Of a DNA stretch of 64,000 nucleotides, positions 16,994 to 64,000 are shown piece by piece. The notes beneath the pieces are model-generated. The model made no database searches. It worked only from the letters and a program-made list of their open reading frames with translations, and was not told where the DNA came from. Position 1 is the stretch's first letter; every line of letters begins with the position of its first letter. The DNA comes from an uncultured Bordetella sp. (GTDB lineage: Bacteria; Pseudomonadota; Gammaproteobacteria; Burkholderiales; SG8-41). The stretch is from the NCBI GenBank assembly GCA_964433345.1, contig CAYSQJ010000005.1, positions 155,585 to 219,584 of the forward strand, read 5' to 3'. A program made the translations under genes and the position numbers.

Positions 16994-17623
16994 ATGTTGC
17001 GAGGAGGTGTTTTGTTAAAAAATGCAATAAAAACAATTACTTGCTTATTATTTCTGCTGCTGGCTGCGCCGCTTGCGGCACAGCAGCCGGCGACGCCGTC
17101 CGGTGGCAAGCCCGCTGCGGCTCCGAAAAAACAAATGCACAAAGTGCAATCCAAAAAGCCTCAGCACAAGCGCAAGGCAGGTCCGCGCCGCGGCAGACTG
17201 GAAAAACTGGCCTGCAAGCTCGGCAACGAAGACCGGCAGGCGCGCATCGCGGTCGAGCTGATCGGCGGCCGCGTCGAAAGCATTGCCTACTACTCCAAGT
17301 GGAAGCCGCGCACCTGCTCGGTGCACATCGTGCGTGATGACGCCTACAGCAAGTGGGAGGATACCGGCCATGTCACCATCGTCACGCTGAACGAGGAGAA
17401 GGGGTCCTTCCTGATCGACCACGGCCGTCGCGCCGTCAAGTTCCTGTTTCGCGAGATCGATCGCGAGCGCTTCTGCGGCATGAGCGGCAAGATCACCGGC
17501 AGCCTGACGGTGACCCGGGGCCGCGATCAATGCGCGCTCGAGGGCGTGATGGACGAGGGTGATGACGACATGCTGCGCCGGCAGCAACCCGCGGAGGCAC
17601 CGCAGCCTGCGCCAATGTCCTGA
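16994..17623 (+). CDS. Hypothetical secreted protein (Lys-rich linker, Cys-containing C-terminal domain)
   Basis: Hydrophobic N-terminus ITCLLFLLLAAPLAA|QQ; no recognisable family; start uncertain (ATG 16994 or TTG 17012 after AGGAGG); its first codons are supplied by the AT-rich element. Confidence 0.45.
   Translation: MLRGGVLLKNAIKTITCLLFLLLAAPLAAQQPATPSGGKPAAAPKKQMHKVQSKKPQHKRKAGPRRGRLEKLACKLGNEDRQARIAVELIGGRVESIAYYSKWKPRTCSVHIVRDDAYSKWEDTGHVTIVTLNEEKGSFLIDHGRRAVKFLFREIDRERFCGMSGKITGSLTVTRGRDQCALEGVMDEGDDDMLRRQQPAEAPQPAPMS
17012..17042 (-). promoter_or_regulatory. AT-rich recurrent element (IHF-site-like), copy 2, inverted
   Basis: ttgttaaaaaatgcaataaaaacaattactt; perfect 15/15 reverse-complement core. 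Confidence 0.6.
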
Positions 17624-26214: not shown

Positions 26215-26244
26215 AAGTAATTGATTTTATTGATAAAATTTAAA
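26215..26244 (+). promoter_or_regulatory. AT-rich recurrent element (IHF-site-like), copy 3
   Basis: aagtaattgattttattgataaaatttaaa; the reverse complement contains aATCAAttacTTg, a full match to WATCAANNNNTTR. Confidence 0.6.
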
Positions 26245-44788: not shown

Positions 44789-44816
44789 CTTAAAAATGTA
44801 ATAAAAACAATTACTT
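44789..44816 (-). promoter_or_regulatory. AT-rich recurrent element (IHF-site-like), copy 5, inverted
   Basis: cttaaaaatgtaataaaaacaattactt; perfect 15/15 core. Confidence 0.6.
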
Positions 44817-47622: not shown

Positions 47623-47652
47623 AAGTAATTGTTTTTATTGACTATTTTTAAC
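47623..47652 (+). promoter_or_regulatory. AT-rich recurrent element (IHF-site-like), copy 6
   Basis: aagtaattgtttttattgactatttttaac; overlaps the last 5 codons and stop of the minus-strand gene. Confidence 0.6.
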
Positions 47653-52014: not shown

Positions 52015-54389
52015 GCAACAGCACCACGACCACCACTGCAGCCGTGCAGGAACGCATCAATACACTGATCGCCGGCGAAATCGGCGTCGCCGCGCGCCAG
52101 GTCGCCGCGGCGGTCGCGCTGCTCGACGAGGGCTCGACGGTGCCCTTCATCGCGCGTTACCGCAAGGAAGTCACCGGCAACCTCGACGACACCCAGCTGC
52201 GCACGCTGGAGGAGCGTCTCGGTTACCTGCGCGAGCTGGAAGCGCGCCGCGCCGCAGTGATTGCCTCGATCGACGAGCAGGGCAAGCTGACCGATGCGCT
52301 GCGCAAGGCGATCGAGGCGGCGGCGACCAAGCAGGCGCTGGAGGATCTCTACCTGCCATACAAGCCGAAGCGGCGCACCAAGGCGCAGATCGCGCGCGAG
52401 GCGGGGCTGGAGCCGCTGGCCGATGCACTGCTCGCCGATCCCGGCCTGCAGCCGGAGACCGAGGCGGCCAAGTACATCCGCGTCGAACCGGCGAAAGAAG
52501 GCGTCGAGGCGATCAACGTGCCGGATGCCAAGGCTGCACTCGACGGCGCGCGCGACATCCTGGTCGAGCGTTTTGCCGAGACCGCGGAACTGCTGGCCAA
52601 GCTGCGCACGCGGCTGCAGCAGGAAGGCATTCTCGCCTCGACGGTGATTCCCGGACAGGAAGCCGCGGAAGAGGAAAAATTCCGCGACTACTACGCTTAC
52701 TCGGAGCCGTTGCGAGCAATCCCCTCGCACCGCGCGCTGGCGCTGTTCCGCGGCCGCGCGCAGGGCGTGCTGAGCCTGCAGCTGGGACTGGGCGAGGCGC
52801 TGGAGGCGGAGAATCCCCACCCCTTCGCGGCGATGGTGGCGGCGCATTTCGGCATCGAGAATCGCAAGCGTCCGGCGGATGCCTGGCTGGCGAATGTCTG
52901 CCACTGGACCTGGAAAGTGAAGCTGCAGCTGCACCTCAGCACCGAGCTGATGGTCGAACTGCGCGAACGCGCCGAGGCCGAGGCGATCCGCATATTCGGA
53001 CGCAATCTCCATGATCTGCTGCTCGCCGCGCCGGCTGGCCCGCGCGCGGTGCTCGGACTGGATCCGGGGCTGCGCACCGGCTGCAAGGTGGCGGTGGTCG
53101 ATGCCACCGGCAAGCTGCTGGATACCGCGACGATTTATCCGCATGCGCCGCGCAACGATATCGAGGGTTCGCTGGCGACGCTGGGGCGGCTGGTGGTCAC
53201 CCACGGGGTCGAGCTGATCGCCATCGGCAACGGTACCGCGAGTCGTGAAAGTGATCGTCTTGCCGGGGAGCTGATCAAGCGCGTTAAGGCGGTGAAGCCG
53301 GAGCTCAAGCTCGCGCGCATCGTGGTCAGCGAGGCGGGGGCTTCGGTGTATTCGGCTTCGGCCTTTGCCGCGGCGGAGTTTCCGGATCTCGATGTCAGCC
53401 TGCGCGGCGCGGTGTCGATCGCGCGGCGTATCCAGGATCCGCTGGCGGAACTGGTCAAGATCGATCCCAAGGCGATCGGCGTCGGCCAGTACCAGCACGA
53501 TGTCAACCAGCGCGCGCTGGCGAAGTCGCTGGATGCGACGGTCGAGGACTGCGTCAATGCCGTCGGCGTCGACGTCAACACCGCCTCGGCGCCGCTGCTG
53601 GCGCGGGTGTCAGGCCTCAATGCGACACTGGCCCGCAACATCGTCGAGTATCGCGATGCGCATGGCCCGTTTCCGGACCGCGCCACCATCCGCAAGGTGC
53701 CGCGGCTGGGCGACAAGACTTTCGAGCAGGCGGCGGGTTTCCTGCGCATCAGCAACGGCAGCAATCCGCTGGACCGCTCGGCGGTGCATCCCGAGGCCTA
53801 TCCGGTGGTCGAGCGCATCCTGACGCGCATCGGCAAGGAAGTCTCCGAAGTGATGGGACAGACCGCGCTGCTGAAAACATTGTCGGCGGCGGATTTTGCC
53901 GATGAACGTTTCGGTGTGCCGACGGTGCGCGACATCCTCGCCGAACTGGAAAAACCGGGCCGTGATCCGCGTCCGGAATTCCGCATGGCCGCCTTCGAGG
54001 ACGGGGTGGAAAAGCTCTCTGACCTGCGCCCCGGCATGATCCTTGAGGGCGTGGTGACCAACGTCGCCGCCTTCGGCGCCTTTGTCGACATCGGCGTCCA
54101 CCAGGATGGCCTGGTGCACATCTCCGTGCTGTCGAACCGCTTCGTCAAGGATCCGCACGAGGTGGTGAAGCCCGGGCAGATCGTCAAGGTGCGCGTGCAG
54201 GAGGTGGATCTCAAGCGCCAGCGCATCGCCCTTAGCATGCGCCTTGAAGAGCCCGCGCCGCGTGAGGGTGGATCGCAGCGCCGCGGGGCGGAAGCGCGGC
54301 CCGGCAATACGCGTCAGGCAAAGCCGCAGCAACGCGAAGAGAAGCCGGCCGGTGCGATGGCGCTGGCCTTCGCCAAACTCAAGCGTTAG
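52011..54389 (+). CDS. tex: Transcription accessory protein Tex (YqgF-like plus S1 domain)
   Basis: 792 aa; [33 protein letters not shown]-terminal S1 domain [21 protein letters not shown]. Confidence 0.9.
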
Positions 54390-54921
54390 TGCCGATTCGG
54401 CCACTACCTCAAGTGCCCGGGCTTGACTGTCCGCGCTGCCCTGCTGAAACACGCGGCGCGAGCTGCTACCCGTTGTCGCAGGGCCCCAGGATCACCGCCG
54501 CGACCATGGCATCCTGTGTGCGCTGTTTTCTGCCGAAGAGGGCTTTAAGGAAGTAGCGCCTGCGCGTGCGGGTCGAGGCATCCGCCGCGAAACGAGGCAT
54601 CAACCGGACTCCAACAGGGCATGCCGGCTGGCGGAAAAGACCTGTCTGCAGTAAGGACGGAGAATTTCCATCATAAGCGCCTAACGGGAAGCCGGGCCGG
54701 CGCCGGGCATCGTGGTGAGCAGCTGATGCGCAGCGCTGCAATGCATTGCGCGCATGGCCTCGGGTTCCCAAGCTGTGAAGACGCACATGCAACTTCGGGC
54801 TGGCACGATAACGTCCGCAATGAAACTTAGGCTGTCGACCGCGGTCACAGATTTGCAGGCTAAAACCTGAACAGGCCGATTCGTCATCGTTGAAATCGGA
54901 GCCCCATTCTTTGGAGAGCAC

Positions 54922-55320
54922 ATGAAAATTCAAGTCAATACAGATGACAACGTCGCAGGCCGCGAGAGTTTGGCGCGACGTGTCGAGGCGGAGGTCAGTC
55001 GTACGCTGGGACATCTCAGTGATCACATCACGCGTGTCGAAGTACACCTGAGCGACGAGGATAGCGGCAAGACAGGGGGCAACGACAAGCGCTGTCTGAT
55101 GGAGGCGCGGCTTGCGGGGCGTCCGCCGGTGGCAGTGACGAACCATGCGGAATCTCTTGGCGAAGCCTTCGGTGGCGCCGCCGACAAGCTGAAGCGCTCA
55201 CTCGAACGCACGCTTGGCCGTCTCAAGGACCATAAAGGCCGTGTATCCATAAGGGGTATCGAGAGCCCGATCGGCCCGCAATCCGATGAGACGGTCACGG
55301 CGCCGGGAGGAGAGAGGTGA
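54922..55320 (+). CDS. HPF/RaiA-family ribosome-associated protein (short form)
   Basis: MKIQVNTDDNV...HITRVEVHLSDE...KRCLMEARL; 132 aa. Confidence 0.6.
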   Translation: MKIQVNTDDNVAGRESLARRVEAEVSRTLGHLSDHITRVEVHLSDEDSGKTGGNDKRCLMEARLAGRPPVAVTNHAESLGEAFGGAADKLKRSLERTLGRLKDHKGRVSIRGIESPIGPQSDETVTAPGGER

Positions 55321-55423
55321 TGGAGTTACCCGGAGTTGCGGTATTCGGCGGACACGCGAATTTTCCGGGTTTCACGCCTTTGACCAGCGGAAAATGCATG
55401 GCCGGAATGCGGGGGCAAAAATC

Positions 55424-55720
55424 ATGAGCCTGATTTCAGTGGCACGAATCGGAGTTTTACTGTTTCTGTCGGCAGCCGCGTCGGCGATCTGGGCAGACGA
55501 CAGGGCTGATTACAATGCCCGTGCGGCGGACCGGCTCGAGAGCTTGTTTCAGGCCCTGGATCGGAATGCCGACGGTGCGCTGACTCCGGAGGAGTCAAGA
55601 GGTGACCTTGATCTGGGACCCCGATTCAACGACATCGACATCAACCGCGACGGCATCATGACGCGGGCGGAGTTGGGGGTGTACCTACAACGTCGTTACG
55701 GCAGCCGGCCTGCGCCATGA
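55424..55720 (+). CDS. Secreted EF-hand calcium-binding protein
   Basis: Trimmed to MSLISVARIGVLLFLSAAASAIWA; two EF loops DRNADGALTPEE and DINRDGIMTRAE. Confidence 0.7.
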   Translation: MSLISVARIGVLLFLSAAASAIWADDRADYNARAADRLESLFQALDRNADGALTPEESRGDLDLGPRFNDIDINRDGIMTRAELGVYLQRRYGSRPAP

Positions 55721-55805
55721 TCGGCTTGAATCTGCAAGGTTCTTTGCCTGACCCCGTTTCCGTCAATGTTCAAAAGCGATGGATCTGAGCGGTGCCGGAT
55801 TCATT

Positions 55806-55830
55806 GAAAAAGCCCCGTCGCAGGGGCTTT
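55806..55830 (+). terminator. Rho-independent terminator
   Basis: aaaaagcccc-gtcgca-ggggc followed by tttt. Confidence 0.65.
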
Positions 55831-56002
55831 TGTATGGCGGAGAGGGAGTCCGCCATACTAATGTCCAATGACGTCCAACCCGGTCCGATGATTCTGGGTT
55901 TTACAGAGGGAAATTGTTGATCATGGCTTGACATGCCCAAATCAATCCAACACCATCCTTACCTGAAACGTGGGTAGAAACGAGGGTAGGATTGGAGGTG
56001 CA

Positions 56003-57223
56003 ATGGGGCGGGCATTACAGCGGTTGTCGACACGATTCGTGGCCAGCAAGACGGTAGCCGGTTATTACGCCGACGGCGGCGGGCTGTATCTGCAGGTCGG
56101 CTCCTCCCGCAGCAAAAGCTGGATATTCCGTTACACCCTCAACGGCCGCGCCCGCGAGATGGGGCTGGGATCCGTGAGCAATATCGGCCTGGCGGATGCA
56201 CGTAAGTCTGCCAGTGCGTGCCGCGGCCTGTTGCATGAAGGCAGGGATCCCATCCAGGTGCGCGATGCTGAACTGGCAGCTGAGCGGCTTGTACAGGCGC
56301 GCGCCATCACTTTCCGGGAATGTGCGGCAGCCTATATCGATGCTCACCGCGCAGGCTGGAAAAACGCCAAACACGCCAGTCAGTGGACCAATACCCTGGA
56401 GACCTATTGCGGGCCGGTATTTGGCGGTTTGCCGGTTGCGGAAGTGGATACCGGCTACGTGCTGAAGGTGCTGGAACCGATATGGGCGCAAAAGTCCGAG
56501 ACGGCAAGCCGGCTGCGGGCACGCATCGAAAACGTGCTGGATTGGGCGACCGTCAGGAAATACCGCTCCGGTGAAAACCCCGCCAGATGGCGGGGGCATC
56601 TGGATATGCTGCTTCCCAGGCTCGGCAAGAAACAACGGGTCAAGCACCACCCGGCGATGCCTTATGGCGAAATCGGTGCTTTCATGGAGCGGCTGAGGGC
56701 GCAGCCCGGAATCGCCGCCCGTGCGCTGGAGTTTCTTGTCTTGACCGCCGCGCGTACGGCCGAGGTGATTGGTGCAAGGCCGGAAGAATTCGACTTGAGC
56801 AAGGGCGTCTGGATCGTGCCGGCCGAGCGCATGAAATCCGGCCGGCCGCACCGGGTGCCGTTGTCAGGGCGGGCGCTGGCAATTGTCAAAAAACAGAAGG
56901 AGGGGAAATACATCTTCCCGGGGGCCCGCGGAAAAAATCCCTTGAGCAACATGGCCATGCTCAAGCTCCTTGAGCGCATGGGCATTGATGCCACGGTGCA
57001 CGGCTTCCGGTCGACGTTCAGGGACTGGGCCGCGGAGTGCACCCATTATTCGCGGGAGGTGTGCGAAATGGCCCTGGCCCACACGGTCGGGGATCAGACC
57101 GAAGCGGCGTATCGGCGTGGTGATTTGTTTGAAAAGCGCAGACTGCTGATGGGCGACTGGGCTGAATACTGTTCGGCACCGGCAGAGACGAAGATTGTGC
57201 CGCTCAGGCAGGCGTATGCGTAA
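56003..57223 (+). CDS. Tyrosine recombinase/integrase (P4-like, DUF4102 arm-binding N-terminus)
   Basis: ATG after GGAGG; YYADGGGLYLQVGSSRSKSWIFRY, C-terminal HGFRSTFRDW...LAH...Y. Confidence 0.85.
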   Translation: MGRALQRLSTRFVASKTVAGYYADGGGLYLQVGSSRSKSWIFRYTLNGRAREMGLGSVSNIGLADARKSASACRGLLHEGRDPIQVRDAELAAERLVQARAITFRECAAAYIDAHRAGWKNAKHASQWTNTLETYCGPVFGGLPVAEVDTGYVLKVLEPIWAQKSETASRLRARIENVLDWATVRKYRSGENPARWRGHLDMLLPRLGKKQRVKHHPAMPYGEIGAFMERLRAQPGIAARALEFLVLTAARTAEVIGARPEEFDLSKGVWIVPAERMKSGRPHRVPLSGRALAIVKKQKEGKYIFPGARGKNPLSNMAMLKLLERMGIDATVHGFRSTFRDWAAECTHYSREVCEMALAHTVGDQTEAAYRRGDLFEKRRLLMGDWAEYCSAPAETKIVPLRQAYA

Positions 57224-57266
57224 GGATTAGCAGAGTGTCTTTAATCGACCTCGAAGGGAAGTGGGT

Positions 57267-57710
57267 ATGGCCAATCTTGAACGGGCAATCAGCATTGCGG
57301 TTGAGGCGCATCGTGGTTCGGTAGACAAGAGCGGGGTGCCTTACATCCTGCACCCCTTGCGTTTGATGTTGGGGATGTCTACCGACGCAGAGCGCATGAT
57401 TGCGGTGCTCCATGATGTGGTGGAAGACACGCACTGGACGCTGGATGCACTCCGCGCGGAGGGGTTTTCGGAAGATATCCTGTCGGCGCTGGACTGCCTG
57501 ACGCGGCGGGAGGGCGAAACCTACGAGGCGTTTATCGCCCGCGCGTCCGCCAACCCGTTGGCCCGCCGGGTGAAAGTCGCAGATCTTGAGGACAACATGG
57601 ACATCCGCCGGCTTTCTCGTCTTGCGGATAAGGATGTGGAGCGACTGCGGCGCTATTTGGCGGCGTGGCAGTTCATGGTGAGTGAAGCTCACGAGTTGGG
57701 AATGACTTGA
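57267..57710 (+). CDS. Small HD-domain protein, RelA/SpoT-type (p)ppGpp hydrolase-like (small alarmone hydrolase candidate)
   Basis: About 147 aa; AHRGSVDKSGVPYILHPLRL, VLHDVVEDT, VKVADLEDNM. Confidence 0.65.
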   Translation: MANLERAISIAVEAHRGSVDKSGVPYILHPLRLMLGMSTDAERMIAVLHDVVEDTHWTLDALRAEGFSEDILSALDCLTRREGETYEAFIARASANPLARRVKVADLEDNMDIRRLSRLADKDVERLRRYLAAWQFMVSEAHELGMT

Positions 57711-57776
57711 ATCTGGAATTTTGTCTATCAAACTAGGGGCAATTCATCCTTCCACGAGCTTGGCACCTTTGATTTG

Positions 57777-58118
57777 CTATCCACACCCATGCACTACTTG
57801 GTTTAGGTCGGACAACGATCCGCGCGATCTCTTCAAGCTGATTCGCCCGCCAATCACGTAACCGCTACGTCCGTCGGGCAGGCGAACAATGGGCGTGACG
57901 TCATCCTTTTCGACATCGCATCCAATGACGGGGAGTTCTTCACCGGCGCGTAGGACTTTGATAGGCGCATTGGGGATTGTACCCTTTGGTGCACCATAGA
58001 TCTCGGTTTGTTGATCGGCTCTCAAGACAATAACGTCACCACTCAGCACATAGCCAACGAGACTAAGGCCGAGTGAAACCAAAACTGCTATTCCGGCCAG
58101 GACTGCCTTTTGAAACAT
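57777..58118 (-). CDS. Membrane-anchored small protein, candidate immunity protein for toxin CT2
   Basis: ATG 2 nt after the toxin stop; N-terminal TM anchor AVLAGIAVLVSLGLSLVGYVL; AT-richer than the genome. Confidence 0.5.
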   Translation of the reverse strand: MFQKAVLAGIAVLVSLGLSLVGYVLSGDVIVLRADQQTEIYGAPKGTIPNAPIKVLRAGEELPVIGCDVEKDDVTPIVRLPDGRSGYVIGGRISLKRSRGSLSDLNQVVHGCG

Positions 58119-58120
58119 GG

Positions 58121-60211
58121 TCAAGGCACCATCGGTAGCGGTGACAAGGGGCGCGGTCCGGGATAGTAGTTGCCCGGTAACGTAAATGGCGACCGCCCTA
58201 GATCCCTTAAGAAGTCGCGTGGCAACATCGAGTCACCGACATCGATCCCAAATTGCCTCAGGCACTCCTGCCACGGAGTACCACAATTATTACTCGTCGC
58301 GCTGTATTGGGGATCCGACGACAGAAGGCATTTCCGCAACTCCGCCTCTTGCTGCGGTGTAAGCGGAATTCGCACTCCGATCCCATTGCGAACCTGCTGC
58401 TGCCGCTGAATGTAGTCATCAGCGCGAGGATATGTACGATCCCAGCCCCGAGGTCCGAAGGAGAAGTTTTCCCCGTTGATGTTCCCCGAGACATGCCCGA
58501 AGCTACTCTCAAGCTGGCCCAAGTTCCCAGGAACGATTCCGCCCGACCAGGAAAGAGCGCCCCAGAATATGATCTCCGTCATGAGTCCGAGTGGATCTAC
58601 CCTGCTCAATGGATTGCTCCCGACATACGCATAGGTATTAATCCCTCCCGCCAGTCCAATCGGATCAGATTGCACATACCGTCCGGTGAGCGGGTCATAG
58701 TCCCTGAAGTAGTTGTAATGCGTGCCGAGTTCTGTGTCGAAGTACTGCCCCGGCAATCTGAGGTTGCAGGTAAAGTTCCCCGCCCCCGAGGGGTTCTCGT
58801 TCGGCGCATTGTTCCCATAGGGATCATCGTTCGCCCAACTCCACACCGCCTGTCCCGTGTCACTGGTAATGAGCCGCGGCGTGTTCAGGTGATCGGTGTG
58901 CACGAAGTACATCTTCGGCACGGTGGTGAGCGCGATCAGCTGGATCGCATCCGCAATGACGAAGCCGTTGGCCTGGTCGGTGAGGGTGATGGTGCTGCTG
59001 CCGTTGAGGTTAAACGTCCCCAGCAGGTTGAAGGCACCGCCATTGGTCTGCTGGTTGACGGGTACTTGAGTGGTCCCCTGGGCATGGTTCACCGTGTAAG
59101 TCGCATTGCTCGCCCGATTCGGGTTTGCCGTCCACTTCGCATACACCTCGTATTGCCCCGCTGCGACGTTCGGCGTCCAGGTCGCGGTGTTGAACTCCGG
59201 CGCCGAGGCCTCGATCAGCCGGATCGCATCCGCAATCACGAAGCCATTGGCCTGATCCGTCAGACTCACCTTGTGGCCCGATCCGGGCGCCATGCTGTAA
59301 GTGCCGAGCAAGACCCACTGCCCGTTGTTCTGCACCTGATCCACCGTCACCGGGGTGTCACCCCCGGCATGGGTCACCGTGTACTGGGCATTGCTCGCCC
59401 GGTTCGGATGCGCCGTCCAGCGGGCATAGACCTTGTAGCTGCCCGCACTGGGGATCGTCGGCGTCCAGGTGGCCGTATTGGGGGCCGCATTCTCCGGGGT
59501 GACCTTGATCGCATCGGCAATGACGTAGCCGTCACCCTGGTCGACCAGCACCACCGAGTGGCCGCTGCCGGCGTTGAGACTGAAGGTGCCCAGCAACTGC
59601 CAAGTCCCGCCATTGGCCTCCTGGTTCACCGTCACCGCTGTCGCGCCCCCGGCATGGTTCACCGTATAGGTGGCCTGGGTGCTGCGGTTGGGGTGGGCGG
59701 TCCAGCGGGCATAGACCTTGTAGCTGCCGGTGGTGGGGATGGTGGGGGTCCAGGTGAAGCTGTTGGCCCCGGCCCCGGCCGGGTGATGCTGGTAGTTGCT
59801 GCCGTAGTAGCCGCCGACACTGGTGGAAGTGGCCCAGGTGCCGGAGGCCGTGCCCGCGGTGTTGTCCACCACGATGGCAGAGGGTTCCTCGCCATTGGCG
59901 GCGTGGACCTGGTAGTTGCTGCCCAGATACCCGCCCACCGAGGTCGAAGTGGGCCAGGTGCCAGTGACACTGAAGCCCGAGTCGGTGTTGTCCACCACGA
60001 TGGCGCCGGGCGGGCTGCCGTTGGCGGGGTGGGCGAGGTAGTTCGTGCCCTGGTAACCGGGCACATTGGTGGAGGCCGACCAGCTGCCCAGCGTGCTGAA
60101 GCCGGCGTCGGTGTTGTCGATCACCACCGGGGTGGCGGCCTGGGTGGCCACGGCAGCGCAGAGGAGGAATGCAGCGAGTATTCCTGCGGTACTGTGGTTA
60201 TGGGAGGGCAT
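58121..60211 (-). CDS. Secreted lectin-repeat / RHS-core / C-terminal toxin (CT2) protein, downstream copy
   Basis: Signal peptide ...AAFLLCAAVATQA|ATP; repeat modules; core MYFVHTDHLNTPRL...YDPLTGRYVQSDPIGL...SRVDPLGL; unique 153-aa C-terminus; no obvious SD. Confidence 0.8.
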   Translation of the reverse strand: MPSHNHSTAGILAAFLLCAAVATQAATPVVIDNTDAGFSTLGSWSASTNVPGYQGTNYLAHPANGSPPGAIVVDNTDSGFSVTGTWPTSTSVGGYLGSNYQVHAANGEEPSAIVVDNTAGTASGTWATSTSVGGYYGSNYQHHPAGAGANSFTWTPTIPTTGSYKVYARWTAHPNRSTQATYTVNHAGGATAVTVNQEANGGTWQLLGTFSLNAGSGHSVVLVDQGDGYVIADAIKVTPENAAPNTATWTPTIPSAGSYKVYARWTAHPNRASNAQYTVTHAGGDTPVTVDQVQNNGQWVLLGTYSMAPGSGHKVSLTDQANGFVIADAIRLIEASAPEFNTATWTPNVAAGQYEVYAKWTANPNRASNATYTVNHAQGTTQVPVNQQTNGGAFNLLGTFNLNGSSTITLTDQANGFVIADAIQLIALTTVPKMYFVHTDHLNTPRLITSDTGQAVWSWANDDPYGNNAPNENPSGAGNFTCNLRLPGQYFDTELGTHYNYFRDYDPLTGRYVQSDPIGLAGGINTYAYVGSNPLSRVDPLGLMTEIIFWGALSWSGGIVPGNLGQLESSFGHVSGNINGENFSFGPRGWDRTYPRADDYIQRQQQVRNGIGVRIPLTPQQEAELRKCLLSSDPQYSATSNNCGTPWQECLRQFGIDVGDSMLPRDFLRDLGRSPFTLPGNYYPGPRPLSPLPMVP

Positions 60212-60227
60212 CAAGAGATATTGTTTT

Positions 60228-60257
60228 AAGTATTTGTTTTTATTGATTATTTTTATC
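60228..60257 (+). promoter_or_regulatory. AT-rich recurrent element (IHF-site-like), copy 7
   Basis: aagtatttgtttttattgattatttttatc (14/15 core), 17 nt upstream of the minus-strand start at 60211. Confidence 0.55.
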
Positions 60258-60262
60258 GTCCG

Positions 60263-60577
60263 TTATGTTTTTTGCTCCATCATTTTCCGCAGACCGTAAA
60301 AAGCAATCGATAAGAGTGCGATACCAGATATCAACGCAACTAACACGGCTAGCCCCCCCCGCAGCCCTCCCACTGAATGGATCACATGTCCCATTGCAAA
60401 TACGCCAAGTAAAGTAGTGGAAATCGAGATCAAGATCGCGTGGCGCAACCATTGCTGTCCGCGATGTAGGGATCTATTGAAGCGCACCAGCAAATAGCAA
60501 AAAAAACAAGTACAGCCGGTGAGCCAGCCATATCCAATGGACCAGAGCACTGTCTCCCAATAACTAACGTCCACCAT
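60263..60577 (-). CDS. Small polytopic membrane protein (second immunity-like gene after CT1)
   Basis: 169-aa ORF trimmed to MVDVSYWETVLWSIGYGWLTG...; three hydrophobic segments; starts 2 nt after the previous stop; AT-rich. Confidence 0.45.
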   Translation of the reverse strand: MVDVSYWETVLWSIGYGWLTGCTCFFCYLLVRFNRSLHRGQQWLRHAILISISTTLLGVFAMGHVIHSVGGLRGGLAVLVALISGIALLSIAFYGLRKMMEQKT

Positions 60578-60579
60578 AT

Positions 60580-60906
60580 TTATGCTCGGCTGGCACTGCG
60601 AACGACCCTTGGTACGACGTACTTGATACCGACAATGGTTACGGCAAATAGCATCACAAGGGCAAGAAGCGGTGGAAGCAATCCACCATCGGAACTTAAG
60701 CGAAACGCCCTCACAACCGAAAGAGAAACTGCCGCGAACGCGAAGAAGAGAAGACGTATAGTAATTATCCATAGGTGACGGTGCGCGCTTCTACCATTGG
60801 GCGGCGCAGGTAAGAGCGTTAAGTTAATCACGGAATAAGTTACCGCGAGAGCTCCTACCGCAGATCCGAACCCGATTCCAGCTAGCAGGCTGAGTAGTGC
60901 GTCCAT
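60580..60906 (-). CDS. Small polytopic membrane protein, candidate immunity protein for toxin CT1
   Basis: MDALLSLLAGIGFGSAVGALAV...; TAATG stop/start overlap with the toxin gene; three hydrophobic segments. Confidence 0.5.
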   Translation of the reverse strand: MDALLSLLAGIGFGSAVGALAVTYSVINLTLLPAPPNGRSAHRHLWIITIRLLFFAFAAVSLSVVRAFRLSSDGGLLPPLLALVMLFAVTIVGIKYVVPRVVRSASRA

Positions 60907-63071
60907 TACTGGCACCCACAAGACATGTCGGGGTTGTACCCGCCAAGCGTGGTTGGCACGAACAGATTTGCTCCCATTTGGCTCGCGGCACTTGCCCCAA
61001 CTGAGACAGCAGCACCAGCATTGAGTGCATTCTGCATATTCGCGCTGATCGTCGCTGGGCTGGTAAAACCGCTAAATGTACGGTTTTGTCCAATATACTG
61101 GAGCGTGCGCCCAAGTCCTGCCGCGCTGCCCAAACCTCCGGAGATTGCACCGATTCCAGCTTGCACACCTGCTTGACCCCAACACACATTGCCAGTTGTG
61201 GCGTACTGATTCACTACATTACTCGTGCCACCAATCAGGCCTCCGGCCAATCCTGTTCCAAAGACACCCCATGAGGTAGGAACAAACGTTGCAGCGACGC
61301 CAGCACCAGCGCCAACAACCGTCCCCCACGCGATAGCAGAGGCATTCTGCCAAGTCCATCCGCCGCTCGCATTTGCTGCTTGGATCGCACCGGCAGCACC
61401 CCCGACGACACCGCCGATAGTTTGAATGATCCAGAGGCCCTCTGGGTCAACACGACTCAGCGGATTGCTTCCAACATAGGCGTATGTATTGATTCCCCCT
61501 GCGAGCCCAATCGGATCAGATTGCACATACCGTCCGGTGAGCGGATCATAATCCCTGAAGTAGTTGTAGTGTGTGCCGAGTTCAGTGTCGAAGTACTGCC
61601 CCGGCAGTCTGAGGTTGCAGGTAAAGTTCCCCGCCCCCGAGGGGTTCTCGTTCGGCGCATTGTTCCCATAGGGATCATCGTTCGCCCAACTCCACACCGC
61701 CTGTCCCGTGTCACTGGTAATGAGCCGCGGCGTGTTCAGGTGATCGGTGTGCACGAAGTACATCTTCGGCACGGTGGTGAGCGCGATCAGCTGGATCGCA
61801 TCCGCAATGACGAAGCCGTTGGCCTGGTCGGTGAGGGTGATGGTGCTGCTGCCGTTGAGGTTAAACGTCCCCAGCAGGTTGAAGGCACCGCCATTGGTCT
61901 GCTGGTTGACGGGTACTTGAGTGGTCCCCTGGGCATGGTTCACCGTGTAAGTCGCATTGCTCGCCCGATTCGGGTTTGCCGTCCACTTCGCATACACCTC
62001 GTATTGCCCCGCTGCGACGTTCGGCGTCCAGGTCGCGGTGTTGAACTCCGGCGCCGAGGCCTCGATCAGCCGGATCGCATCCGCAATCACGAAGCCATTG
62101 GCCTGATCCGTCAGACTCACCTTGTGGCCCGATCCGGGCGCCATGCTGTAAGTGCCGAGCAAGACCCACTGCCCGTTGTTCTGCACCTGATCCACCGTCA
62201 CCGGGGTGTCACCCCCGGCATGGGTCACCGTGTACTGGGCATTGCTCGCCCGGTTCGGATGCGCCGTCCAGCGGGCATAGACCTTGTAGCTGCCCGCACT
62301 GGGGATCGTCGGCGTCCAGGTGGCCGTATTGGGGGCCGCATTCTCCGGGGTGACCTTGATCGCATCGGCAATGACGTAGCCGTCACCCTGGTCGACCAGC
62401 ACCACCGAGTGGCCGCTGCCGGCGTTGAGACTGAAGGTGCCCAGCAACTGCCAAGTCCCGCCATTGGCCTCCTGGTTCACCGTCACCGCTGTCGCGCCCC
62501 CGGCATGGTTCACCGTATAGGTGGCCTGGGTGCTGCGGTTGGGGTGGGCGGTCCAGCGGGCATAGACCTTGTAGCTGCCGGTGGTGGGGATGGTGGGGGT
62601 CCAGGTGAAGCTGTTGGCCCCGGCCCCGGCCGGGTGATGCTGGTAGTTGCTGCCGTAGTAGCCGCCGACACTGGTGGAAGTGGCCCAGGTGCCGGAGGCC
62701 GTGCCCGCGGTGTTGTCCACCACGATGGCAGAGGGTTCCTCGCCATTGGCGGCGTGGACCTGGTAGTTGCTGCCCAGATACCCGCCCACCGAGGTCGAAG
62801 TGGGCCAGGTGCCAGTGACACTGAAGCCCGAGTCGGTGTTGTCCACCACGATGGCGCCGGGCGGGCTGCCGTTGGCGGGGTGGGCGAGGTAGTTCGAGCC
62901 CTGGTAACCGGGCACATTGGTGGAAGCCGACCAGCTGCCCAGCGTGCTGAAGCCGGCATCCGTGTTGTCGATCACCACCGGGGTGGCGGCTTGGGTGGCC
63001 ACGGCAGAGCCCAGCAGCAGGGCGGCGAGCAGGTGGCGGGCGGTGGTCATGATGTGTTTGTTGTTATTCAT
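60906..63071 (-). CDS. Secreted lectin-repeat / RHS-core / C-terminal toxin (CT1, glycine-zipper-rich) protein, upstream copy
   Basis: AGGGG SD; signal peptide MNNNKHIMTTARHLLAALLLGSAVATQA|ATP; same modules and core as the 58121 gene up to SRVDPEGL, then a 175-aa Gly/Ala-rich C-terminus. Confidence 0.8.
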   Translation of the reverse strand: MNNNKHIMTTARHLLAALLLGSAVATQAATPVVIDNTDAGFSTLGSWSASTNVPGYQGSNYLAHPANGSPPGAIVVDNTDSGFSVTGTWPTSTSVGGYLGSNYQVHAANGEEPSAIVVDNTAGTASGTWATSTSVGGYYGSNYQHHPAGAGANSFTWTPTIPTTGSYKVYARWTAHPNRSTQATYTVNHAGGATAVTVNQEANGGTWQLLGTFSLNAGSGHSVVLVDQGDGYVIADAIKVTPENAAPNTATWTPTIPSAGSYKVYARWTAHPNRASNAQYTVTHAGGDTPVTVDQVQNNGQWVLLGTYSMAPGSGHKVSLTDQANGFVIADAIRLIEASAPEFNTATWTPNVAAGQYEVYAKWTANPNRASNATYTVNHAQGTTQVPVNQQTNGGAFNLLGTFNLNGSSTITLTDQANGFVIADAIQLIALTTVPKMYFVHTDHLNTPRLITSDTGQAVWSWANDDPYGNNAPNENPSGAGNFTCNLRLPGQYFDTELGTHYNYFRDYDPLTGRYVQSDPIGLAGGINTYAYVGSNPLSRVDPEGLWIIQTIGGVVGGAAGAIQAANASGGWTWQNASAIAWGTVVGAGAGVAATFVPTSWGVFGTGLAGGLIGGTSNVVNQYATTGNVCWGQAGVQAGIGAISGGLGSAAGLGRTLQYIGQNRTFSGFTSPATISANMQNALNAGAAVSVGASAASQMGANLFVPTTLGGYNPDMSCGCQ

Positions 63072-63084
63072 GTCCGCGGCCCCT

Positions 63085-64000
63085 TTACTGGATCACCGCC
63101 ACGGGGGCATCCCCGAGGTAGATGTATTCCCGCTGGGGGGTGCCGGAGGCACTCGTCTCCGAGATCAGACGCCCCTGGGCGTCATAGTGGTAAATCGTGT
63201 CGCCCTGGGTGTTGGTCTTGCGGATCCGCTGACCGACACTGTTCACCTGGTAGGTCGTGCTGCCCCCCACGCCAGTGGCCTGCACCAGGCGCCCGCGGCT
63301 GTCGTAAGCGAAGCTGCGTGCCGTGTCGGCCGTGGTGCTGCCATTGGCGTCGTAGCTGTAGCTGCGGTTCGTCGTGCCGCTGATGCTGGCGAGCCGGTTG
63401 CTGCTGCCGCTGTAGGCATAGGTGTCGGTGTTCGCCCCCACGGTCCGGGTCAACCGGTTGCCCACCGCATCGAAGGTGTAGCCCTGGCTCGTGCTGGGGC
63501 CGGTGAAGCCCGTCAGCCGGTCCAGCGTGTCATAGGCATAGGTGTTGGTATTGACCGGGGTCACCGTGTCGGTCAGGCTGGTGATGCGGCTGGCGGGGTC
63601 GTAGCCCACGGCAATCGACTGGGTGGCCAGCGTGTAGCTCGCGATGCGCCCGTCCTGATCAAACCCGCGGCTGTAGGTCTGCCCGTTGCCGAAGGTGTGG
63701 CCCGAACTGGGCCCGAAGGGCCGGTAGGCGACGCTGGAGACGACCGTCTGGGTCTCCGAGTCCTTGGTGGTGGCCACCGCCTGGATGCGGCCCAGCGCAT
63801 CAAGGGTGTAGGTGACCTGCCGCCCGGAGGGGTAGGTCATCCCGGTCATGCGGCCTGCGCTGTCATAGGCGTAGGCGGTGACATAGGGCACGCCGTTGAT
63901 GGTGCGGGTCTCCGACAGCAGTCGGCCGTGCACGTCATAGGCATAGTCGGTGAGGCTGTTGGGCTCGGTGATCTGCGTGAGCCGTCCCTTGCCGTTCGTG
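63085..64000 (-). CDS. YD-repeat (Rhs shell) protein, C-terminal part; N-terminus lies beyond the window
   Basis: Repeated YxYDxxGR(L/M) units (YAYDSAGRMTGMTY, YTLDALGRIQAV, YAYDTLDRLTGF, YHYDAQGRLISE). The frame stays open to 64000. It ends ...REYIYLGDAPVAVIQ with TAA at 63085-63087. Confidence 0.85.
   Translation of the reverse strand, partial: TNGKGRLTQITEPNSLTDYAYDVHGRLLSETRTINGVPYVTAYAYDSAGRMTGMTYPSGRQVTYTLDALGRIQAVATTKDSETQTVVSSVAYRPFGPSSGHTFGNGQTYSRGFDQDGRIASYTLATQSIAVGYDPASRITSLTDTVTPVNTNTYAYDTLDRLTGFTGPSTSQGYTFDAVGNRLTRTVGANTDTYAYSGSSNRLASISGTTNRSYSYDANGSTTADTARSFAYDSRGRLVQATGVGGSTTYQVNSVGQRIRKTNTQGDTIYHYDAQGRLISETSASGTPQREYIYLGDAPVAVIQ

Follow-up and report, generated by a model that had tools for sequence, protein, structure and literature searches.

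[quoted passage not shown] 2014, PMC3967940), in which tandem copies share core DNA up to the DPxGL motif and each carries a different C-terminal toxin with its own immunity gene. The main and orphan genes of Salmonella recombine across 522 bp at 95% identity, which in LT2 swaps the expressed toxin (PMC3967940), and recombination of toxin-immunity cassettes at the 3' tip is the general model for polymorphic toxins (PMC3482391). [quoted passage not shown] 2012, PMC3482391).

In the BC cocoon of ABC toxins (TcB plus TcC, for example YenB/YenC2 and TcdB2-TccC3), the YD/Rhs shell is made of two polypeptides, and the C-terminal partner bears the core aspartyl protease and a hypervariable toxin. Several TcC paralogues can serve one TcB. 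The MafB toxins of Neisseria reportedly combine a signal peptide, a conserved N-terminal domain, a polymorphic C-terminal toxin, and an immunity gene, and are said to occur as several full-length paralogues with spare cassettes in islands.

The window analysed here (the whole stretch of 64,000 nt) holds two tandem modules that share with MafB the signal peptide, conserved body, variable C-terminal toxin, and a candidate immunity gene, whereas the conserved domain of MafB (DUF1020) is unrelated and MafB has neither an RHS core nor a DPxGL autoprotease. Compared with the rhs-main/orphan loci, the repeat is three times longer than in LT2 and spans nearly the whole ORF, the downstream copy is complete (start codon, signal peptide) instead of 5'-truncated, the shell is a separate gene, and no PAAR, VgrG, or T6SS context is visible in the window. 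Unlike the BC cocoon, the second protein has only the core and a lectin array besides the toxin, so that the split point differs; no TcA-like gene was seen at the locus, and both parts have Sec signal peptides, their assembly in trans being putative. Neither Golvesin_C nor a separation of the shell from the lectin array by a stop codon and a new signal peptide is described for the toxins of Zhang et al. (2012), and full-text literature searches found no paper treating golvesin and Rhs together.

Organization of the toxin modules and the YD-shell gene

Module A, the upstream copy, is a 721-aa ORF on the minus strand (60906..63071) with an SD-like AAGGGG 8 nt before the ATG, and comprises a signal peptide (62988-63071), a Golvesin_C array (~61782-62987), an RHS core (61434-61781), and the toxin tip CT_A (60909-61433). 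Module B, the downstream copy (58121..60211, minus strand), encodes 696 aa from the ATG at 60211, with an alternative TTG at 60214, and comprises a signal peptide (60137-60211), a Golvesin_C array (~58931-60136), an RHS core (58583-58930), and CT_B (58124-58582); its protein is identical to database protein P0001. Golvesin_C (PF25275) was matched at 350 bits (cutoff 31.6; E 4e-106 in module A), with five stretches in each module protein, and the RHS-associated core (TIGR03696) was matched to its last position at 78.8 and 78.9 bits (cutoff 32.5), both aspartyl motifs (DPIGL...DP(E/L)GL) being present in both modules. Golvesin_C is a CBM6/35/36-like domain (PMC9166713). In the AF2 model of a fused homologue, the array reached a pLDDT of ~90-96 and matched xanthan lyase (6f2p), and it is predicted to be carbohydrate-binding-like (CBM-like) in the modules.

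A sequence-only reading of this DNA had assigned the two genes to the Rhs/CDI pattern. The tandem polymorphic-toxin genes with unrelated tips were confirmed, but the modules are not Rhs proteins proper, as no YD/RHS repeat (PF05593 or TIGR01643) was matched in 60906-63071 or 58121-60214 with Pfam and NCBIfam. A single-chain Rhs protein proper was accordingly rejected for both modules, which lack YD repeats and have their shell encoded in a separate upstream gene. No CDI-type family was detected with Pfam in the two module proteins or in six ORFs around them (57261-63933; integrase 55970-57223).

The 3' end of this YD/RHS-repeat shell gene lies at 63085..64000 on the minus strand, closing with REYIYLGDAPVAVIQ and the stop codon at 63085-63087, 13 nt upstream of module A, and its frame stays open to the window end, where the gene runs off. 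It matched Pfam RHS_repeat (E 1e-27) and TIGR01643, and no RHS core domain was found in the part within the window. Orthologues in L007 (1272 aa) and L003 (1267 aa) have a signal peptide and no core, a 10-15-nt gap between YD gene and module is kept in the window, L001, L007, and L003, and tblastn coordinates revealed the same layout in L004. Single-ORF (fused) forms also exist (P0021, P0026, P0093), and L082 and L081 are split at another point. As judged from these gene models, shell and core-toxin are encoded on separate, adjacent, co-oriented genes that are fused in other genomes, and the split of a YD shell from a lectin-core-toxin protein is a little-described Rhs variant that appears undescribed in this form. 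The locus draws attention to a large, apparently undescribed family (>2000 database matches), in which the Rhs shell and the core-toxin would be secreted as distinct proteins, the latter bearing a lectin array.

In addition, a P4-type tyrosine integrase (55970..57223, plus strand; Pfam Arm-DNA-bind_3, Phage_int_M, Phage_integrase) probably marks the edge of a lower-GC island holding the toxin locus, according to the GC profile; no tRNA genes were detected in the window.

Identity pattern of the direct repeat

Both repeat copies lie on the minus strand, and the alignment of 58583-60156 (copy 2) with 61434-63007 (copy 1), at an offset of 2851 nt, bore out the indel-free repeat reported earlier, with 33 mismatches in 1574 nt (97.9% identity). 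The longest mismatch-free run spans 1289 nt (58757-60045 in copy 2, 61608-62896 in copy 1) and encloses the segment 58771-60045 already described as free of differences. It is bordered on the toxin side by a sparse zone (58656-58756 and 61507-61607) and a dense "stub" (58583-58655 and 61434-61506), and on the other side by a 5' flank (60046-60156 and 62897-63007). Every substitution in 58611-58770 is synonymous, as had been stated, although the recount gave 17 instead of 18. The dense stub has 22 mismatches in 73 nt, the sole amino-acid difference being L/E in DP(L/E)GL, and similarity stops directly after this motif, exactly where the sequence-only reading had placed its end. At the other end, the substitutions said to begin at 60046 number five within 60046-60140 (one T/S and four synonymous), and similarity fades 5' of this zone within the signal-peptide coding region, consistent with the reported divergence of the signal-peptide ends.

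Divergence between the two genes is thus sharply graded and not even along their length: dS was 0 across the 428 codons of the perfect block, 0.15 in the 5' flank, and 0.34 in the sparse zone (codons -58 to -26), and was saturated in the dense stub (codons -25 to -1). Among 200,000 random placements of the 33 mismatches, the longest run reached 590 nt, and the clustering is far beyond chance (p ~1e-23, analytic bound).

The proposed exchangeable cassette and its boundary

In both stubs GC3 was 0.52, against 0.85 in the perfect block, 0.50 in CT_A, and 0.65 in CT_B. The breakpoint was analysed further in 83 intra-locus module pairs with unrelated toxins from 19 loci. Upstream of codon -25, these pairs had an amino-acid identity of 0.85-0.89 and a synonymous codon identity of 0.68-0.71, whereas after the first DPIGL the former fell to 0.76 and then 0.49 and the latter to 0.50 and then 0.41. 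This family breakpoint coincides with the start of the dense mismatch zone in the window. The proposal that an incoming cassette brings its own core stretch is therefore supported by the synonymous saturation, the toxin-like GC3, and the break at the family-wide point, suggesting that the last 25 codons (GLAGG to DPxGL) form the core stub of a mobile cassette that also holds the toxin and the immunity gene. The boundary of this cassette is sharp and can be located at single-codon resolution, immediately behind the first DPIGL motif.

Two observations fit this picture less well. In a weak test, the stub on contig L079, which carries the CT_A homologue, agreed with copy A in 56/72 and with copy B in 49/72, and this was counted against the picture. 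Moreover, the two stubs in the window share 24/25 residues despite their saturated DNA, a level of at least 24/25 reached in only 3 of 8778 pairs, and this protein identity is not predicted by a simple picture of two independent imports.

Arrays in relatives and origin of the repeat

In related MAGs, between 2 and 8 or more modules come after the YD gene (four in L001, two in L007, six or more in L002, and seven or more in L008, with L005 also arrayed). Mosaic perfect blocks were found in L001 (1141 nt), L008 (long-read; 200-360 nt), L005 (326 nt), L002 (216 nt), and L039 (2548 nt). The perfect block of the window has 82% identity with each of the four copies in L001 and 74-75% with each of the four copies compared in L002. 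Copies cluster by genome, which together with the mosaic blocks indicates concerted evolution, as would result from gene conversion.

Recent duplication or gene conversion had been suggested for the perfect block, and the analysis supported gene conversion or recent recombination as its explanation. With good though not full confidence, the locus is regarded as a set of tandem polymorphic-toxin modules in which the perfect block is a recent gene-conversion tract and the stub-toxin-immunity cassette was exchanged separately. Homologous recombination inside the array would produce the observed pattern: a recent tract of at least 1289 nt, deduced here from one assembled sequence, would have made the Golvesin array and the greater part of the core uniform, stopping at unrelated DNA (the signal-peptide n-region and spacer on the 5' side, the toxin on the 3' side). 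The flanks would keep older divergence because conversion cannot enter unrelated DNA at either end, and this divergence would be graded owing to the differing end points of earlier tracts, while the last 25 codons would be saturated and low in GC3 because they move between genomes with the toxin and immunity gene. On this evidence, a known mechanism appears to act in an undescribed split-Rhs variant, and the repeat would be a clear example of polymorphic-toxin array evolution, with the body kept uniform by conversion and the tip variable. The 1.57-kb direct repeat would also be a substrate for deletion or duplication; a deletion across it would fuse the 5' end of module A to CT_B, with loss of CT_A, immA1, and ORF2, and the layout is consistent with the predicted loss of the first toxin and its immunity genes.

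Zero differences over 1289 nt would also follow from a recent tandem duplication of a single module with its immunity unit, if horizontally acquired DNA later displaced the stub, toxin, and immunity gene in one copy and, in the other, the 5' end together with the spacer. The perfect block would then be what these replacements left of the duplication rather than a conversion tract. Such duplications arise often and have been documented at rhs loci (PMC3967940), and the range of 2 to 8 or more modules in relatives indicates that duplication and loss occur. Such a history is nevertheless unlikely, as it needs two further independent replacements, both ending within the gene. In addition, the 5' end of module A and its YD junction have orthologous counterparts in the first modules of L001 and L007 (~80% identity), whereas the 5' end of module B is of the internal-copy type with an AT-rich spacer; both 5' ends are thus old and position-specific, as expected if an interior segment was converted. 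Nested conversion tracts also account better for the graded flanks (dS 0.15 and 0.34) than clean replacements do.

An artefact of assembly or polishing, in which a repeat collapse or multi-mapped polishing reads gave one consensus to true copies differing by ~1-15%, or in which only a single copy exists, is considered very improbable. The source is a 360,770-nt NCBI contig for which the sequencing technology is not stated, and L001, whose copies 1 and 2 are the closest parallel, contains a stretch of Ns within copy 2, exactly in the repeat, so that part of its perfect block may stem from the assembly. Both copies in the window, however, are flanked by unique sequence and keep intact reading frames, the mismatches at their edges stay in frame and are synonymous, each toxin-immunity cassette exists independently in other samples, and relatives as a rule carry arrays of several modules, among them the long-read assemblies L002 and L008. 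Furthermore, a chimeric join would not yield a composition and codon gradient matching the family-wide breakpoint.

Spacer and presumed expression of module B

As described earlier, module B lacks an SD sequence before its start and is preceded by an AT-rich element (60215..60262, minus strand), which contains AATAAAAACAAATACT at 60229-60244 and a -10-like CAATAT 6 nt before the TTG/ATG. A sigma-70 consensus scan of this spacer gave no match. The motif AATAAAAACAAATACT has five occurrences in the window, where 0 were expected, and is also present at three sites in the related MAG L001, one of them upstream of an unrelated gene. Because of the four other sites in the window, the motif looks promoter-like and would point to independent expression rather than displacement. 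Both modules are presumed to be expressed, although the missing SD was counted against expression of module B. The suggestion that the downstream copy is a displaced orphan cassette was not supported, as module B is a complete 696-aa gene with its own signal peptide and full Golvesin array, and the AT-rich motif is dispersed. An orphan rhs-CT/rhsI cassette was likewise rejected for module B, which has an ATG/TTG start and is not 5'-truncated; it shares one trait with such cassettes, the core-coding homology with the upstream gene (1574 nt, 97.9%).

A putative two-component Rhs system

A bolder and rather doubtful reading is that the locus encodes a two-component, Sec-exported Rhs weapon, in which one YD shell is completed in trans by interchangeable lectin-core-toxin subunits from the tandem array, with a converted body and a swapped tip. 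Gene conversion would then keep the shell-facing body (Golvesin array and core) identical among subunits, and only the 25-codon stub, toxin, and immunity gene would be exchanged. On target length, the AF2 model of the fused homologue P0026 best matched TcC chains (5kis_B, TMt 0.52; 6l7i_G, 0.50), with low confidence for the core and toxin of the fused form. A dedicated T2SS-like cluster (pseudopilin, GspF-like, GspE-like, and PilN-like genes) adjoins such loci in relatives from several bacterial lineages (Gemmatimonadaceae, Rhodocyclaceae, Duganella, and alphaproteobacterial MAGs) and may carry the weapon parts across the outer membrane, which, if true, would add a route of Rhs delivery not described before. 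Assembly of the parts in trans would allow a single shell to be armed with different toxins, which would matter for competition between bacteria in soil and wastewater and for the engineering of protein-delivery cocoons.

Toxin tips and candidate immunity genes

After DPxGL, CT_A and CT_B share no similarity, and their toxin activities, like the export of both modules, are predicted from sequence. CT_A, which has one homologue (83% identity), is predicted to be a Gly/Ala/Ser-rich membrane-active toxin with zipper-like motifs. The candidate immunity gene immA1 (60580..60906, minus strand; 108 aa, ~3 TM segments) overlaps the CT_A stop codon with its ATG (TAATG), and its orthologue follows the CT_A homologue on the soil-metagenome contig L079. 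A second small membrane ORF after immA1 (60263..60577, minus strand; 104 aa, from ORF and hydropathy) had no family match in Pfam or NCBIfam and may encode a second immunity or accessory protein. For CT_B, the candidate is immB (57777..58118, minus strand; 113 aa, one N-terminal TM anchor), whose ATG lies 2 nt past the CT_B stop codon (58121-58123) and a homologue of which follows the CT_B homologue P0121 on contig L080. Both putative toxin-immunity pairs are thus conserved as pairs on the unrelated metagenome contigs L079 and L080. CT_B has an H...C motif, with SSFGHVS...TSNNCG invariant in A2, and possibly adopts a permuted papain-like fold (the YiiX fold match is weak). Its family comprises 619 representatives, all at the C-terminal position, and the domain is also borne by canonical Rhs proteins. 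Members of the module family carry Ntox10, Ntox16, Colicin_M, Tlde1, and PLA2 toxin domains.

Architecture of the split Rhs system

The two tandem toxin genes belong to a new variant of carrier, a split Rhs system whose modules combine lectin, core, and toxin, and the mechanism acting on them, recombination within a polymorphic-toxin array, is already known. Both lie on the minus strand, with module A (60906-63071; 721 aa) as the upstream copy and module B (58121-60211; 696 aa) as the downstream copy. Each encodes a protein that starts with a signal peptide and continues with five stretches of Golvesin_C (PF25275, 350 bits), which belongs to the CBM6/35/36-like carbohydrate-binding group (PMC9166713), and an RHS-associated core (TIGR03696, ~79 bits; cutoff 32.5) ending in DPIGL...DPxGL, after which the C-terminal domains (CT_A and CT_B) are unrelated. 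No YD repeats were detected in either protein with Pfam or NCBIfam, and family scans of the module proteins and neighbouring ORFs revealed no CDI-like families. The ORF directly upstream of module A, open to the window end and ending at 63085, encodes a YD-repeat protein whose C-terminus (...REYIYLGDAPVAVIQ*) lies 13 nt before the module A ATG. A full-text search found no paper joining Golvesin domains and Rhs.

A database search returned 2188 matches, most of them ~650-aa proteins that share this build but vary at the C-terminus, and the closest genomes had the same layout as the window. For example, the YD protein of L007 (1272 aa) has a signal peptide, DUF6531, and 17 RHS repeats but lacks a core, and its stop codon is followed by a short gap, a first module that again starts with a signal peptide, and then a second module; in L003, a Gemmatimonadaceae MAG, a 1267-aa YD protein precedes a 670-aa module. 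Module counts reached four in the MAG L001, at least six in the long-read MAG L002, and at least seven in L008. Single-ORF forms were also found, with the Golvesin array placed between ...REYIWLGDxPVA and YYVHxDHLxTPR. The AF2 model of one fused protein, P0026 (pLDDT 76.5), was confident for the YD hairpins and the Golvesin array and matched T6SS Rhs cores, TcC chains, and teneurins, with the lectin part matching xanthan lyase. Since such fused forms exist, the YD protein and the modules would, by a gene-fusion argument, represent two halves of one Rhs machine.

The split point varied by genome (L082:6089-11300; L081:109-4400; L068; L048), being located before the Golvesin array or, as in L082 and L081, inside the YD region instead (639 aa + 1099 aa, with an 8-nt overlap), while unsplit forms without a Golvesin array also occurred. 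In addition, the array at L005:3400-17400 harbored complete modules, with signal peptide, Golvesin array, and core all present, beside classical short orphans of core stub plus toxin, indicating that both cassette types coexist in one locus.

The direct repeat and its exchangeable cassette

Positions 58583-60156 and 61434-63007 aligned without gaps at an offset of 2851 and with 33 mismatches, confirming the direct repeat described in the sequence-only reading. The perfect block proposed there also exists and is slightly longer than described, spanning 58757-60045 (1289 nt). On the toxin side, 28 mismatches were counted (6 in 58656-58756 and 22 in 58583-58655), all of them synonymous apart from the L/E difference in DP(L/E)GL, and the five on the 5' side fell within 60046-60140, one of them T/S, beyond which likeness fades within the signal-peptide coding region. 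The uneven pattern of identity held as well, as random placement of 33 mismatches (200,000 trials) never gave a run above 590 nt, with an analytic bound of ~1e-23 for the observed one.

Synonymous divergence and GC3 resolved three layers within the repeat, namely the Golvesin array together with the bulk of the core (dS 0; GC3 0.85), codons -58 to -26 (dS 0.34; GC3 0.64-0.70), and the last 25 codons up to DPxGL, hereafter the stub (dS saturated; GC3 0.52 in copies A and B alike), compared with a GC3 of 0.50 in CT_A and 0.65 in CT_B. Among the 24 stub codons encoding the same amino acid, 6 were identical between copies, compared with 6.8 expected at random under uniform codon usage; this is no excess of divergence beyond saturation, and selection for synonymous divergence was rejected. 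Across 83 intra-locus pairs with unrelated toxins from 19 loci, protein and synonymous identity fell just after the first DPIGL. This drop is thus general in the module family, and the exchangeable cassette accordingly comprises toxin and immunity gene together with the 25-codon core stub, in agreement with the published toxin-immunity cassette model (PMC3482391). The breakpoint agrees with the earlier idea that an incoming cassette carries its own core stretch, and the sequence-only interpretation holds for the most part; its suggestion that the downstream copy is a displaced orphan is not supported, as module B is a complete gene and not truncated.

Whether the stub travels with its toxin could also be compared through L079, a soil contig with the only close CT_A homologue, whose stub matched copy A at 56/72 and copy B at 49/72 positions; this difference is small, and the stub argument therefore rests on the family-wide profile instead. 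Despite saturated DNA divergence, the stub peptides (58583-58655 and 61434-61506) were the same at 24 of 25 residues, a level reached by only 3 of 8778 pairs, with typical intra-array pairs differing at about half of the 25 residues. Both window stubs, like those on L079 and on contig L080, were close to the clade consensus, and this likeness may thus reflect chance plus constraint.

Origin of the identical interior

The window block shared 82% identity with each of the four L001 copies, the second of which contains Ns, and 74-75% with each of the four L002 copies compared. Paralogues inside one genome were 84-100% identical, copies clustered by genome, and mosaic perfect blocks were seen in other arrays too, a combination that amounts to concerted evolution. 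Moreover, the 5' end of module A has its orthologues in the first modules of L001 and L007, and that of module B was of the internal-copy type; both ends are therefore old, and the identical stretch between them is young. Old ends around a young interior favour gene conversion over plain duplication as the probable origin of the block. Such repeats do recombine in the Salmonella rhs main/orphan system (PMC3967940).

Toxin and immunity genes

CT_A comprises 175 aa, of which 45% are Gly/Ala/Ser, with numerous small-xxx-small motifs. The ATG of immA1 (60580-60906), encoding a candidate immunity protein with three TM segments, overlaps the CT_A toxin stop codon, and a second TM ORF (ORF2, 60263-60577) follows. 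The sole CT_A homologue found, on L079, showed 83% identity and was followed by an immA1 orthologue. For CT_B, the candidate immunity protein is encoded by immB (57777-58118) and has one TM anchor; an immB homologue comes after the CT_B homologue on L080. Both toxin-immunity pairs thus recur together on other contigs and behave as mobile cassettes.

CT_B (58124-58582; 153 aa) was identified as a widespread toxin domain without a Pfam model, with the SSFGHVS and TSNNCG motifs invariant, including the conserved H and C, respectively. A profile search gave 619 representatives at 50% clustering, with the match C-terminal in 150 of the 150 listed. Its carriers comprised canonical Rhs, teneurin-like, and Ig-array-plus-core proteins; among nine representatives in a Pfam scan, several were canonical Rhs, one was teneurin-like, and one had a Big_3_5 plus core module. 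None of CT_A, CT_B, immA1, ORF2, or immB matched a Pfam or NCBIfam family, even with the cutoff relaxed to E 0.1. For the medium-confidence CT_B model (pLDDT 66), the best Foldseek fold match was weak (E 0.38), to YiiX, a permuted papain-like protein, and any assignment of the toxin's chemistry is tentative. Toxins elsewhere in the module family include Colicin M, Tlde1, and PLA2, which, together with the membrane-anchored candidate immunity proteins, suggests the cell envelope as the site of toxin action. In L002 (15290-15900), the CT_B-like toxin of module f was broken by frame changes, making protein alignment impossible, and represents either a decaying cassette or homopolymer sequencing errors.

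AT-rich leader and genomic setting

Module B lacks a Shine-Dalgarno (SD) sequence, as previously noted, and its AT-rich leader contains AATAAAAACAAATACT. With at most two mismatches, this motif occurred five times in the 66%-GC window (17026-17041(+), 26216-26231(-), 44800-44815(+), 47624-47639(-), and 60229-60244(-)) versus 0 expected, and in L001 at 4488, 7588, and 12591, ahead of two internal modules (2 and 3) and of one unrelated gene. The dispersed element is ~45 nt long (TTAAAAAT-N3-4, further letters, then a TATAAT-like hexamer) and, in at least two cases, is separated by 17-20 nt from a downstream start codon that lacks an SD; in the module copies, the -10-like hexamer is 6-12 nt ahead of the start codon. 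A simple sigma-70 consensus scan of 57600-63300 found no promoter. The element is interpreted as promoter-like and lineage-specific, and may yield short-leader or leaderless mRNA.

The GC content drops from ~0.66 to 0.54-0.61 at ~54600, and a P4-type integrase gene (55970-57223, plus strand) and a weak HD-domain ORF (57261-57710, plus strand) separate a Tex-like gene from the toxin array. The whole window yielded no tRNA, and 54300-64000 yielded no Rfam match. The region 54600-58100 is a probable genomic-island edge.

T2SS-like genes adjoining YD/Rhs genes

A T2SS-like gene set adjoined YD/Rhs genes in Gemmatimonadaceae, Rhodocyclaceae, Duganella, a Bordetella-like MAG, and alphaproteobacterial MAGs; in the window it is out of view, since the YD gene is cut by the window end at 64000. 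No paper linking T2SS-like genes with Rhs came up in a full-text search. The full set, encoding a pseudopilin (64-69% identity) and GspF-like and GspE-like proteins, was detected at L003:778-5993 (minus), L082:422-4995 (minus), L048:2578-5919, and, in the cultivable relative Duganella aquatilis FT26W, L068:17670-20341, with an additional PilN-like gene in L003 and L082. Partial sets comprised the pseudopilin and GspF-like genes (L009:21202-22683 and L045:10095-11774) or the pseudopilin gene only (L002:1471-1866). This set may be an export apparatus dedicated to Rhs proteins that carry signal peptides.
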